Assembly: GCF_030013205.1 (NCBI RefSeq)
Contig: NZ_CP122648.1
Length of the DNA stretch: 64,000 nt
Direction: 5' to 3' (one strand)
Source: Escherichia coli
Lineage (GTDB): Bacteria; Pseudomonadota; Gammaproteobacteria; Enterobacterales; Enterobacteriaceae
This document shows, in pieces, positions 1,374 through 45,552 of the stretch. A program made the translations under genes and the position numbers. The stretch's first letter is position 1, and each line of letters opens with the position of its first letter. The notes below the pieces were generated by a model. It saw nothing but the letters and a program-made list of their open reading frames with translations. It searched no databases and was not told the DNA's origin.

Positions 1374-1884
1374 AGTGTATTCCTTATTGTTGCTTAGTTA
1401 GGGTAGTCACTATATTTGCGACTGAGCTGGTCGCTATTTTTAACCAGGCTGGAAAATTGAGTCAATATATCGAAAGCGGTAGTCGGCGGGTGTAAGTATG
1501 TAATGATGATGCTGCACTGGTGTTGAATATTATTCACGCCAAATTTTCCTTATTGAGCAACGTCGTCGCAAGTGGCCTCAATGATTTTAGACCATTATCA
1601 GAGGTCCGGGGCGGCAGGGAGAGATTTAGTGCTGTGGAATATTGTGGTGCTGATGAATATTTATATCCCGGATTGGTAGAGAAAAAGCTTTTTCCATGCA
1701 CTTTTTTTGCAAATATTTCTGTATGGGAGGCGGTTTTGTTGCAGATTAATTCATAAAGAAATGCATTTGGGTGTTGGCTGGAAGAGTCGCGGGTAGATGT
1801 TATTGTGCCAGCAGGGGCAGGGTAAGGTACTGTATCGATATGCTTTGGCAATTGCATGTGCCGCAGAGGGAGATGAAATGCCAA

Positions 1885-1964: not shown

Positions 1965-3158
1965 TTAGAACTGGTAGACTAAGCCCACAGCAACGATATC
2001 ATCGGTAGCGATGCCGTTTGCTTTGTAGAAGTCGTCGTCGTTGTCCAGCAGGTTGATTTTGTAATCAACGTAGGTGGACATGTTTTTGTTGAAGTAGTAA
2101 GTCGCACCAATATCAACGTATTTAACCAGATCTTTATTGGTGTAACGTGGGTCGCCGTTGCCGTCATGAGCCCAACCACCTAAATCCTTACCTTTAGATT
2201 GCAGGTAAGCGATGGACGGGCGCAGGCCGAAGTCGAACTGATACTGAGCAACAACTTCAAAGTTTTGGGTTTTGTTCGCAATACCACCTCTGTCAATGTC
2301 GTTATTGTCTTTTCCGCTGCCATATGCAGTCATATTACGTGTTTCTGCATACATTGCCGCTAAATAGACATTATTCGCATCATATTTAGCACCGACTGTC
2401 CATGCTTCAGCTGTTTCACCACCAGCATATTTATTCGAGCGTTGCTCACCTAAACCAGTAGCACGTTGGTTATCAGTACGGTCAGAGTTTGAATATGCAG
2501 CCCCGAGGCTTAACCCGAAGTCAAAGTCATAGGAAGTGGACATACCGAAACCGTCACCATTTTCTTTAGACAGTTTACGATTATTACCATTACCAGAACC
2601 TTCTTGATCCCAAAGCCCACCCGATCCTTCATTATTACCCTGATATTGCAGAGCAAAGTTCAGGCCATCGACCTGACCAAAGAAGCCATTGTTACGGTAG
2701 GTTGCAACACCATTAGCACGACCGTTCAGGAAGTTGTCGGCACCAGCATAGGTATCGCCACCAAATTCTGGCAGCATATCGGTCCATGCTTCGATGTCAT
2801 ATACGACACCGTAGTTACGACCATAGTCGAAAGTACCATTCTGACCAAAGCCTAAACCTGCAAATGCCAGACGCGTTGCGGTATTACCTTTGTCGCTTTC
2901 AGGACCGTTTGCGCCAATGTTAAATTCCCACTGACCATAACCAGTGAATTGGTCAGCGATCTGAGTTTCACCTTTGAAACCGATACGGGCATATGACATG
3001 TCGCCATCGCTGCCAGCATCATCAGAGAAGTAGTGCAGGCCCGCTACTTTTCCGTACAAATCCAGTTTATTACCATCTTTATTATAGACTTCAGCCGCAT
3101 TTGCTGCGCCAGCAACTAATAACGCCGGGACCAGCATTGCCAGAACTTTTCTTTTCAT
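1965..3158 (-). CDS. yedS: OmpC/OmpF-family outer-membrane porin, intact reading frame
   Basis: ORF 1965..3188; start set at [21 protein letters not shown] signal peptide; porin-like GxxYxF-rich beta-barrel sequence ending ...VGLVYQF. Confidence 0.85.
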
Positions 3159-3470
3159 TATGTATTCCCTTGTGATTATAATCTTCATGAATATATCAAT
3201 AAGTGCCGTTATCCAAAAAAAAGCACATTTGGATACTATTCTATGAAGTTCATTTTATTTTAAAGATTACATGCAACAAATATATTTAAAAGATTTCAAA
3301 ATGTTTCTAATCTATTTAATATAATTCGGAATTATGAATTCTAAATATAAATATTCATGAAAATTATAAATGTATATCAATATGTTATGAGTTGAGCGGA
3401 AACATAGGGGGTATCAATGATTGTTGCGCCAAACGGCTGGTGTGATCACGCGCACATTAATGAAGGCATA

Positions 3471-3558
3471 AAAAAAGCCGGCATCATGCCGGCCCAAAAA
3501 AATAAACAAGACGATAAAAGGCTAATAACGGAAGCATCATGACACAGAATAATAAAAA
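3471..3558 (-). ncRNA. rseX: Candidate small RNA (RseX-like) between yedR and yedS
   Basis: Minus-strand TACAAT -10 near 3565-3570 and a 7-bp GC hairpin (gccggca/tgccggc) followed by T7 at ~3470-3476 give a ~90-nt transcript; RseX maps between yedR and yedS in K-12 (recalled, sequence not verified). Confidence 0.4.
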
Positions 3559-3842
3559 GGTATAATTGTAATCAGTGCTAATATATTGATTGAATGAATT
3601 AATAAAGCCGATATCAAAGATAAATAAAATCGCTCAAAACGATTTTTCCTGTATTCACTGCCGTTGCGCAAAAATTATCTATTTGTTCAAAAAATGATTG
3701 AGTCTTGACTGGCTCATCCAATGTGGAAAAATGTGACTTTTATCACATAATAGTACTAAGTCTGAATTTTCCGGGTTATCTCAAAATGGAATACGGTTCG
3801 ACAAAGATGGAAGAGAGACTCTCTCGCAGCCCTGGCGGCTAA

Positions 3843-4088
3843 TTGGCTTTGTGGGCTTTCTATACATGGTGTGGCTATTTCGTCTGGGCAATGGCGCGTT
3901 ACATCTGGGTGATGAGCCGGATCCCTGATGCCCCGGTGTCGGGATTTGAAAGCGATTTAGGCTCTACCGCGGGAAAGTGGTTAGGGGCACTGGTCGGATT
4001 TTTATTTATGGCTCTGGTCGGGGCATTGTTAGGCAGCATTGCCTGGTACACCCGACCTCGTCCCGCACGTAGCAGACGCTATGAATAA
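3843..4088 (+). CDS. yedR: Small inner-membrane protein YedR
   Basis: 81-aa ORF with two hydrophobic helices; position between yedS and yedJ; start codon (TTG at 3843 or a downstream ATG) uncertain. Confidence 0.65.
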   Translation: MALWAFYTWCGYFVWAMARYIWVMSRIPDAPVSGFESDLGSTAGKWLGALVGFLFMALVGALLGSIAWYTRPRPARSRRYE

Positions 4089-4100
4089 AAACTGCTAAGG

Positions 4101-4715
4101 TTGCGACTCTTTGGCAACGGAGCGCGTATGGACTTACAACACTGGCAGGCACAGTTCGAAAACTGGTTGAAAAACCATCATCAGCACCAGGACGCGGCCC
4201 ATGACGTGTGTCATTTTCGCCGCGTCTGGGCTACGGCACAGAAGCTGGCGGCAGAAGAGACGCGTCGCCTGCTGCGTGAAGAATTCGTGCAATTTCCGGC
4301 GGAGAAAATCGAGGCCGTTTGTCATGCCATTGCCGCTCACAGTTTCAGCGCGCAAATCGCCCCCTTAACAACGGAAGCTAAAATCGTCCAGGATGCGGAT
4401 CGGCTGGAAGCCCTGGGGGCGATTGGCCTGGCGCGCGTGTTTGCTGTTTCAGGGGCATTGGGCGTGGCGCTGTTTGATGGTGAAGATCCGTTCGCACAGC
4501 ATCGCCCGCTGGATGATAAACGCTACGCGCTGGATCATTTCCAGACTAAGTTGCTGAAGCTACCGCAAACCATGCAAACCGCAAGAGGCAAGCAGCTGGC
4601 GCAGCACAACGCGCAATTTTTAGTCGAGTTTATGGCGAAGCTCAGTGCCGAACTGGCGGGGGAGAATGAAGGTGTCGATCACAAGGTGATAGATGCGTTT
4701 TCACCCGCGGGCTGA
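4101..4715 (+). CDS. yedJ: HD-domain phosphohydrolase YedJ
   Basis: 204-aa ORF with an H..HD-type motif region ([19 protein letters not shown]); immediately upstream of dcm; start may be the second Met at 4128. Confidence 0.8.
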
Positions 4716-4781
4716 GCGCGTGGCCCTAAATGGCTGTAATTATGTTAACCTGTCGGCCATCTCAGATGGCCGGTTAAATCT

Positions 4782-6200
4782 ATGCAGGAAAATATATCAG
4801 TAACCGATTCATACAGCACCGGGAATGCCGCACAGGCAATGCTGGAGAAACTGCTGCAAATTTATGATGTTAAAACGCTGGTGGCGCAGCTTAATGGTGT
4901 GGGTGAGAATCACTGGAGCGCGGCAATTTTAAAACGTGCGCTGGCGAATGACTCGGCATGGCACCGTTTAAGTGAGAAAGAGTTCGCCCATCTGCAAACG
5001 TTGTTACCCAAACCACCGGCACATCATCCGCATTATGCGTTTCGCTTTATCGATCTATTTGCCGGTATTGGCGGCATCCGTCGCGGTTTTGAATCGATTG
5101 GCGGACAGTGCGTGTTTACCAGCGAATGGAACAAACATGCGGTACGCACTTATAAAGCCAACCATTATTGCGACCCGGCGACGCATCATTTTAATGAAGA
5201 TATTCGCGACATCACCCTCAGCCATAAAGAAGGCGTGAGTGATGAGACGGCGGCGGAACATATTCGTCAACACATTCCTGAACACGATGTATTACTGGCC
5301 GGTTTCCCATGTCAGCCATTTTCGCTGGCTGGCGTATCGAAAAAGAACTCGCTCGGGCGGGCGCACGGTTTTGCCTGTGATACCCAGGGCACGCTGTTCT
5401 TTGATGTGGTGCGTATTATCGACGCGCGTCGACCGGCGATTTTTGTGCTCGAAAACGTCAAAAACCTGAAAAGCCACGACCAGGGTAAAACGTTCCGCAT
5501 CATCATGCAGACGCTGGACGAACTGGGCTATGACGTGGCCGACGCAGACGATAACGGGCCGGACGATCCGAAAATCATCGATGGCAAACATTTCCTGCCG
5601 CAGCACCGTGAACGCATCGTGCTGGTGGGTTTTCGTCGCGATCTGAATCTGAAAGCCGATTTTACCCTGCGTGATATCAGCGAATGTTTCCCTGCGCAGC
5701 GAGTGACGCTGGCGCAGCTGCTGGACCCGATGGTCGAGGCGAAATATATCCTGACGCCGGTGCTGTGGAAGTACCTCTATCGTTATGCGAAAAAACATCA
5801 GGCACGCGGTAACGGCTTCGGTTATGGAATGGTTTATCCGAACAATCCGCAAAGCGTCACGCGTACGCTGTCTGCTCGTTATTACAAAGATGGCGCGGAA
5901 ATTTTAATCGATCGCGGTTGGGATATGGCCACGGGTGAGAAAGACTTTGACGATCCGCTGAATCAGCAACATCGTCCACGTCGGTTAACGCCTCGTGAAT
6001 GTGCGCGCTTAATGGGTTTTGAAGCGCCGGGAGAAGCGAAATTCCGCATTCCGGTTTCGGACACTCAGGCCTATCGCCAGTTCGGTAACTCGGTGGTCGT
6101 ACCGGTCTTTGCCGCGGTGGCAAAACTGCTTGAGCCAAAAATCAAACAGGCGGTGGCGTTGCGTCAGCAAGAGGCACAACATGGCCGACGTTCACGATAA
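4782..6200 (+). CDS. dcm: DNA-cytosine methyltransferase (CCWGG)
   Basis: 472-aa ORF; C5-MTase motifs FAGIGG, PCQPFS, ENV; same length as E. coli Dcm. Confidence 0.95.
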
Positions 6201-11785: not shown

Positions 11786-11874
11786 AGCACATCAGATTTC
11801 CTGGTGTAACGAATTTTTTAAGTGCTTCTTGCTTAAGCAAGTTTCATCCCGACCCCCTCAGAGTCGGGATTTTT
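11786..11874 (+). ncRNA. dsrA: DsrA small regulatory RNA
   Basis: Near-exact match to the recalled DsrA sequence (...CACATCAGATTTCCTGGTGTAACGAATTTTTTAAGTGCTTCTTGCTTAAGCAAGTTTCATCCCGACCCCCTCAGAGTCGGGATTTTTTT) including its terminal hairpin and U-tract. Confidence 0.9.
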
Positions 11875-45249: not shown

Positions 45250-45325
<76 letters not shown>

Positions 45326-45379
45326 GTTTAAAAGACATCGGCGTCAAGCGGATGTCTGGCTGAAAGGCCTGAAGAATTT

Positions 45380-45453
45380 GGCGCGTTAACAAAGCGGTTA
45401 TGTAGCGGATTGCAAATCCGTCTAGTCCGGTTCGACTCCGGAACGCGCCTCCA
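45380..45453 (+). tRNA. cysT: tRNA-Cys (anticodon GCA)
   Basis: GGCGCGTTAACAAAGCGGTTATGTAGCGGATTGCAAATCCGTCTAGTCCGGTTCGACTCCGGAACGCGCCTCCA. Confidence 0.95.
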
Positions 45454-45465
45454 CTTTCTTCCCGA

Positions 45466-45552
45466 GCCCGGATGGTGGAATCGGTAGACACAAGGGATTT
45501 AAAATCCCTCGGCGTTCGCGCTGTGCGGGTTCAAGTCCCGCTCCGGGTACCA
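45466..45552 (+). tRNA. leuZ: tRNA-Leu (anticodon UAA), long variable arm
   Basis: GCCCGGATGGTGGAATCGGTAGACACAAGGGATTTAAAATCCCTCGGCGTTCGCGCTGTGCGGGTTCAAGTCCCGCTCCGGGTACCA. Confidence 0.95.

Follow-up and report, generated by a model that had tools for sequence, protein, structure and literature searches.

By its covariance-model score, its near-identity to K-12 b4603 and its conserved synteny, the transcription unit of about 90 nt in the drpB-yedS interval of this Escherichia coli chromosome is an orthologue of rseX. The best explanation of the locus, to which we assign a probability of roughly 93%, is that it encodes an Hfq-dependent, trans-acting small RNA (sRNA) that behaves as it does in K-12. 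Knowledge of RseX dates back to 2002-2006, the K-12 annotation includes it and Rfam devotes a family to it; what is found here is an ordinary strain allele of this known gene in its canonical locus. The features discussed below are listed in Table 1 and numbered along the whole 64,000-nt stretch of DNA that was analysed (the window).

Table 1. Features of the rseX locus, other RNA genes in the window and predicted RseX sites on known targets.
Feature	Position	Strand	Remarks
rseX transcription unit	3470..3558	-	89 nt, K-12-annotated +1 through end of U-tract
Candidate rseX sigma-70 -10, TACAAT (positions -12..-7)	3565..3570	-	Read from sequence; same in K-12
Single-stranded pairing ("seed") region, RseX nt 29-51	3508..3530	-	CGUUAUUAGCCUUUUAUCGUCUU, with anti-Shine-Dalgarno CCUUU; from predicted duplexes and conservation
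U-rich linker, nt 52-63, preceding terminator	3496..3507	-	Holds the 1-nt strain-specific deletion relative to K-12
Rho-independent terminator	3470..3495	-	Hairpin nt 64-84, loop UGA, tail of seven U
yedS, ompS1-type porin	1965..3158	-	Intact, 397 aa; ORF and RefSeq annotation of locally identical K_EC180
drpB (yedR), divergent upstream neighbour	3786..4088	+	TAA stop at codon 19 (3840-3842)
DsrA	11786-11872	+	Rfam, 96.3 bits
ES036/CssrF	35325-35366	-	Rfam, 42.9 bits, barely over threshold
tRNA Gly-Cys-Leu cluster	45250-45549	+	Rfam
STnc490	63815-63938	+	Rfam, 146.4 bits
Predicted RseX site on ompA	ompA -22..-7		RseX nt 37-51; -11.9 kcal/mol predicted
Predicted RseX site on ompC	ompC -15..+1		RseX nt 29-44; 14 consecutive pairs; -12.6 kcal/mol predicted
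Predicted RseX site on fimB	fimB -2..+22		RseX nt 29-50; -18.0 kcal/mol predicted
Predicted RseX site on ihfB	ihfB -11..+8		RseX nt 12-31; -14.9 kcal/mol predicted

Identity and genomic distribution of rseX

A scan of the whole window with the Rfam covariance models identified the 89 nt from 3558 to 3470 on the minus strand as rseX (RF01401), in a match that spans model positions 1-94 of 94 and, at 93.4 bits, lies above the gathering score of 50; for the scan of the full window the E-value is 2e-11. When the 1-kb slice from 3000 to 4000 was rescanned permissively, rseX was returned at E = 3e-13 and no competing family rose above threshold. The corresponding ncRNA of K-12 MG1655 (b4603) occupies 2033649..2033739, with drpB (formerly yedR) on one side and a yedS pseudogene on the other, and alignment of 181 nt, flanks included, to this annotated region gave 98% identity. 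Within the RNA itself only two differences from K-12 were found, both of them 1-nt deletions: an A is missing from the U-rich linker, and the tail ends in seven U where K-12 has eight. The RNA is accordingly 89 nt long here and 91 nt in K-12. The minus-strand sequence of 3470-3558 is UUUUUAUUAUUCUGUGUCAUGAUGCUUCCGUUAUUAGCCUUUUAUCGUCUUGUUUAUUUUUUUGGGCCGGCAUGAUGCCGGCUUUUUUU. The original prediction had placed an RseX-like sRNA in the yedR-yedS interval, at 3471-3558, and had proposed alignment to K-12 rseX as a check; it is borne out by the RF01401 score, by the near-identity to K-12 over those 181 nt and by synteny, and its coordinates are correct to within 1 nt.

Of 5426 complete E. coli genomes, 4908 carry the 632-nt drpB-yedS intergenic region, leaving about 500 without it. 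The region is 100% identical to that of the swine isolate K_EC180; window and isolate are identical locally but neither collinear nor identical across 50 kb. RefSeq (PGAP) annotation of E. coli outside K-12 labels neither rseX nor dsrA in the region equivalent to the window, and among the matches listed for the intergenic region the annotated features were "none" in all 30 genomes. Given that rseX goes unlabelled in the RefSeq records of non-K-12 strains, its rediscovery by a scan of the sequence is the correct behaviour. The other Rfam matches in the window fit the K-12 region from dsrA to glyW-cysT-leuZ, reversed.

The surroundings of rseX are also conserved. As predicted, the unit is intergenic and shares the orientation of yedS, whose start codon follows 311 nt past the rseX terminator, and the adjacent porin gene is intact, its product matching Pfam Porin_1 over positions 1-337 of 337 (E = 5.5e-143); in K-12, yedS is a pseudogene split near residue 220. 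Searches with tblastn recovered the order drpB, rseX and porin, with drpB divergent and the other two co-oriented, in five other species (E. albertii, E. whittamii, two further Escherichia lineages and Citrobacter amalonaticus), where rseX scores 70.9-95.2 bits with the Rfam model, and the spacing from rseX terminator to porin ATG is 310-316 nt across the orthologous loci. For Salmonella, a published table has rseX flanked by STM1994 and ompS, with arrows that agree with the order seen here, and lists it among RNAs recovered with Hfq (PMC2515195); an exact-pattern scan of species genomes returned no Salmonella, and the Salmonella link is that of the published table.

Loss of the region has also occurred. 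In E. coli S1-CAM-01-C (locus 3500-5300), an IS3-family element lies between drpB and hchA in place of rseX and yedS. Such an insertion may be one route by which the approximately 500 E. coli genomes came to lack the region, and repeated loss of rseX within E. coli and Shigella has been described (PMC3318445).

Promoter, terminator and transcript ends

The minus-strand TACAAT and the GC-rich hairpin followed by seven T, on which the original prediction was built, are both present. The -10 (3570..3565) lies 6 nt upstream of the +1 at 3558, and the sequence from -30 to +1, -10 included, does not differ from K-12. No good -35 precedes it; the candidates are TCAATC or TTCAAT at 3588-3594, a poor -35 region in which there is one C/T difference from K-12. 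The terminator scan returned a stem at 3495..3475 (minus) of nine pairs, six of them G-C, with a 3-nt loop and then seven T reaching 3470. This stem is the sole helix both in the centroid fold and in the consensus fold of the alignment. The folding z-score of the RNA is -1.5, and one terminator-like site was found in 750 nt where shuffled sequences yield 0.6, which is within chance. Taken alone, these pattern scans fall short of significance; the case for rseX rests on homology.

The promoter and 5' end of K-12 rseX have been mapped by others, according to the summary in PMC8313858. A re-analysis of dRNA-seq data places the native rseX start at 2033678, which is +30 of the annotated RNA (window 3529) and falls right at the seed (PMC7967276 supplement), and shorter forms of RseX, of ~75 nt, are also seen on Northern blots (PMC8313858). 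Taken together, the start at +30 and the ~75-nt forms mean that active RseX may be shorter than, and so differ from, the annotated 89-91 nt species.

RNA anatomy and conservation

In this strain's rseX, the -10, the pairing region and the terminator are all intact. An alignment of 12 sequences from Escherichia and Citrobacter, in which six of the loci had been retrieved by a pattern that itself fixes part of nt 14-46 (nt 30-46 partly), is invariant at nt 12-20 and 29-49, while nt 50-51 differ only in Citrobacter. Variation is found mostly at nt 6-10, at nt 24-28, in the linker, whose length differs among strains, and in the tail. Among eight E. coli strains the pairwise identity is 93% for rseX, 88% for the promoter region and 91% for the DNA past the terminator; when the other species are added, these values become 82%, 59% and 70%, respectively. 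The consensus fold of the 12 sequences leaves the body of the RNA U-rich and unstructured, and one terminator pair shows a compensatory change, from G-C to A-U, in Citrobacter. The elements typical of Hfq-binding sRNAs, namely a U-rich linker, a terminator and a U tail, can be read from the sequence. A U-rich stretch near the terminator is general among Hfq-dependent sRNAs, making the RseX linker a putative Hfq-binding module.

Two further candidate features were rejected. The 5' hairpin of the Rfam model is unsupported because a stem position varies without compensation: position 21 is G, C or U opposite an unchanged U partner, and the consensus fold retains the terminator only. A small peptide of 18 codons, starting from an AUG at nt 19, was likewise set aside, for single-base indels shift its frame between strains; as the frame differs between this strain and K-12, the RNA is taken to be non-coding.

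Known function, silencing and predicted pairing

RseX was isolated as a multicopy suppressor of the essentiality of RseP, and its lowering of ompA and ompC depends on Hfq (Douchin 2006, as relayed in PMC8313858 and PMC7648144); the repression of these two genes, which the original prediction had named, agrees with what those two papers relate. Two further mRNAs, fimB and ihfB, are repressed through pairing with their start regions (PMC8313858). Repression of fepA involves the 3' part of RseX and proceeds via the terminator loop, seemingly with no direct base pairing (PMC11979758). In wild-type K-12 RseX is undetectable; it appears upon removal of H-NS, more strongly if StpA is also removed, and without H-NS both RseX "and surrounding areas" rise (PMC8313858). 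Occupancy by H-NS, and the derepression that follows its removal, have been shown at the rseX locus in K-12 only (PMC8313858, PMC11230228). In the window, G+C over 3150-3750 is 27-33%, compared with about 50% in the flanks, an AT-richness that is consistent with silencing.

As described for K-12 in the literature, RseX is made from a weak sigma-70 promoter that H-NS normally silences, with StpA as a backup. Once made, it binds Hfq, and its single-stranded middle pairs with the translation-initiation regions of ompA, ompC, fimB and ihfB, barring the entry of ribosomes and lowering the target mRNA. The allele of this strain should act like the K-12 RNA, since both of its differences fall outside the seed and outside nt 12-51.

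Pairing was predicted with a home-made windowed duplex search (26-nt windows) that takes into account the energy needed to open each of the two RNAs; it was applied to K-12 target sequences, and its results are to be read as predictions. Whole-sequence duplex folding of RseX against 210-nt targets had given unrealistic long duplexes with huge loops and was replaced by this windowed scan. The background consisted of 57 annotated start regions taken from the surrounding chromosome (mean -9.2, sd 2.2 kcal/mol). In each of the four known targets the best predicted site lies at the Shine-Dalgarno or start region (Table 1), and the duplexes with the start regions of ompC, ompA and fimB are all predicted within RseX nt 29-51. 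All four rank within the top 0-12% of the 57 background genes; ompA and ompC are not outliers, with 12% and 9% of background genes scoring equally well, and the specificity of the scan is modest. The seed is predicted to be complementary to the ribosome-binding regions of ompA and ompC, and the RseX-ompA site is stated as not mapped (PMC8313858).

Does RseX act on its neighbour yedS?

YedS is a porin of the OmpC family and ompC is a target of RseX, and the original prediction had asked whether the sRNA might act on yedS as well. Direct repression of yedS by base pairing, as with ompC, is nevertheless very unlikely by these predictions. The best accessibility-corrected duplex between the two is gapped and reaches -7.5 kcal/mol, which ranks 42 of 57 and lies below the background median, whereas the known targets span -11.9 to -18.0 kcal/mol. 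Across 13 orthologous RseX/yedS pairs the best yedS site jumps among unrelated positions. The target prediction against the yedS 5' region that had been proposed, run here as the windowed duplex scan, thus yielded no stable, conserved pairing, and the suggested action on yedS is unsupported. The 14-bp ompC site, AGAGGGUUAAUAAC, reads AAGGGAAUACAUAA in yedS, where only about five of the pairs are kept. Among the papers searched, none linked RseX to the regulation of yedS.

A second possible contact lies inside the coding sequence. Positions +5..+35 of yedS (codons 2-12; 3124-3154) are complementary, over ~22 bp, to the terminator arm and U tail of RseX (nt 61-89; 3470-3498), and the hybrid-only energy of -30.5 kcal/mol belongs to the top ~0.08% when 30-nt windows are taken across the 64 kb, and comes second among 58 start regions. 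Both partners are invariant across Escherichia, and the terminator loop is known to matter functionally for the control of fepA (PMC11979758). However, after opening of the hairpin the complementarity nets only -4.7 kcal/mol, and with ~70 windows tested it becomes marginal, at roughly p 0.03-0.05. With so small a net energy and so marginal a rarity, it was rejected as evidence of targeting and is kept as a low-probability lead. MicF is said, from work by Warner in 2013, to affect YedS; used as a control against the yedS start region, it gave a best value of -5.9 kcal/mol, equal to the background median, and so offered no usable positive control for yedS. The adjacency of rseX and yedS is probably a matter of shared chromosomal silencing and ancestry, and not of RseX targeting yedS.

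The two genes could nonetheless be connected without any pairing between them. In such a scheme, rseX and yedS would be silenced together, and upon relief from H-NS the cell would make YedS while RseX removes its main competitors, OmpC and OmpA, yedS escaping for want of an RseX site. The conserved gene order described above, which extends to the Salmonella table (PMC2515195), and the steady distance from terminator to ATG speak for this, as do the replacement of the ompC site in yedS, with a yedS score under the background median, the joint rise of RseX and its surroundings without H-NS (PMC8313858) and the genome in which IS3 insertion removed both genes jointly. Precedent is available in micF/ompC and micC/ompN (PMC5745476). 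On the other hand, rseX is unchanged where yedS is a pseudogene (K-12, O104:H4), so its maintenance is independent of yedS, and the adjacency may be mere inheritance. We regard such a porin swap as a tentative idea with the odds against it; it is a plausible extension of the reading of rseX as a K-12-like sRNA and does not replace that reading. Its fuller form is somewhat less likely again: here rseX and an intact yedS would form one H-NS-silenced cassette, yedS would be immune through loss of the ompC-type site, and read-through of the terminator, or the complementarity between terminator arm and +5..+35, may couple the two.

Strains with an intact yedS are the right background in which to ask why a porin-repressing sRNA stays beside a quiescent porin, from Salmonella to Escherichia; K-12 is unsuited to the question, its yedS being a pseudogene. 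Work by Warner in 2013 reportedly linked YedS to carbapenem susceptibility, and if rseX and yedS were co-regulated, the locus would gain some clinical relevance through that link.

Comparison with related systems

RseX resembles MicF, encoded beside ompC, and MicC, encoded beside ompN, in that all are Hfq-dependent sRNAs of about 90-110 nt that have a different porin gene adjacent and act on a major porin mRNA, which they repress by pairing with the ribosome-binding site (PMC5745476). There is no sequence relationship between RseX and the other two, and whereas micF and micC are divergent from the adjacent porin gene, rseX is co-oriented with yedS and upstream of it. MicF is regulated by OmpR, SoxS and MarA (PMC5745476), while for RseX silencing by H-NS is the sole known regulation (PMC8313858). 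Compared with the window, K-12 rseX has the same locus, orientation, -10, +1 context, seed and terminator; it differs in its length (91 vs 89 nt), in the C/T of the poor -35, in the yedS pseudogene and in a drpB without the premature stop. Salmonella rseX is found in the same order and orientation beside the quiescent porin ompS/ompS1 and was recovered with Hfq (PMC2515195); it went undetected on wild-type Northern blots (PMC1804206). Compared with the copy in the window, the Rfam consensus has additional bases both in the linker and in the terminator loop.

A promoter-like site on the opposite strand

On the plus strand at 3539-3566, the sequence ATGACA-16 nt-TATAAT matches 11 of 12 positions of the sigma-70 consensus; no other site in the 64 kb, whichever strand is read, reaches 11/12. 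The site runs antisense to the 5' end of rseX, its -35 being complementary to RseX nt 15-20 and its -10 overlapping that of rseX by 2 bp. Among the Escherichia loci examined it is invariant save in E. albertii (10/12), and in Citrobacter it is degenerate (8/12). A supplement of K-12 transcription starts (PMC7967276) lists no start at this site, only those of yedR further downstream, at 2033449 and 2033469 (window 3758 and 3738), which coincide with the two weaker promoter-like sites of our promoter scan. One possibility is that the opposite-strand site is a promoter, either silenced or spurious, in competition with rseX.

It also bears on a further reading, under which the locus is a silent, non-functional relic whose 5' core has been kept for another reason, such as this promoter. 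RseX is undetectable in wild-type E. coli (PMC8313858) and Salmonella (PMC1804206), the gene has been lost repeatedly (PMC3318445) and is missing, with its region, from the roughly 500 of 5426 genomes, and its -10 varies between species (TAAAAT, TACCAT, TTCAAT, TACGAT) whereas the opposite-strand site is better conserved. Yet the seed at nt 29-49 lies outside that site and is invariant from E. coli to Citrobacter, against 59-70% identity in the promoter and post-terminator flanks, and terminator pairing is preserved by compensatory change. When expressed, moreover, RseX binds Hfq and acts on four mapped or validated targets (PMC8313858, PMC11979758, PMC2515195), and the published K-12 transcription starts (PMC7967276) include none at the opposite-strand site. 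We hold it improbable that the locus is a relic, and the reading of rseX as a functional, K-12-like sRNA is preferred.

Other observations around the locus

In drpB, the codon AAA is changed to TAA (K19 to stop) and the remainder is identical to the 100-aa K-12 protein; RefSeq gives a form of only 81 aa that starts at a TTG at 3843, directly after the stop. Pig-associated O139:H1 and ETEC strains carry the stop allele with 100% identity, and in one further strain drpB is flagged "internal stop". Between hchA and yedS, at 1534-1884 (minus), lies an ORF of 116 aa that is a "hypothetical protein" in K_EC180 and has no Pfam match.

The ~170 nt just upstream of yedS (~3159-3330, minus) are conserved far above rseX or its flanks, with 94% pairwise identity over -160..-1 among Escherichia and Citrobacter, and contain repeats that resemble OmpR boxes, GAAACATTTTGAAATC and TGTTACATGTAATC. 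From -25 to +45, synonymous sites included, yedS is identical in 11 of 12 Escherichia loci, with one substitution in an O55:H7 strain, while at the protein level Escherichia lineages share only about 85-91% identity in YedS. Such a pattern suggests that the yedS 5' region, codons 1-15 (3114-3158) included, is under strong constraint, either regulatory or at the RNA level.
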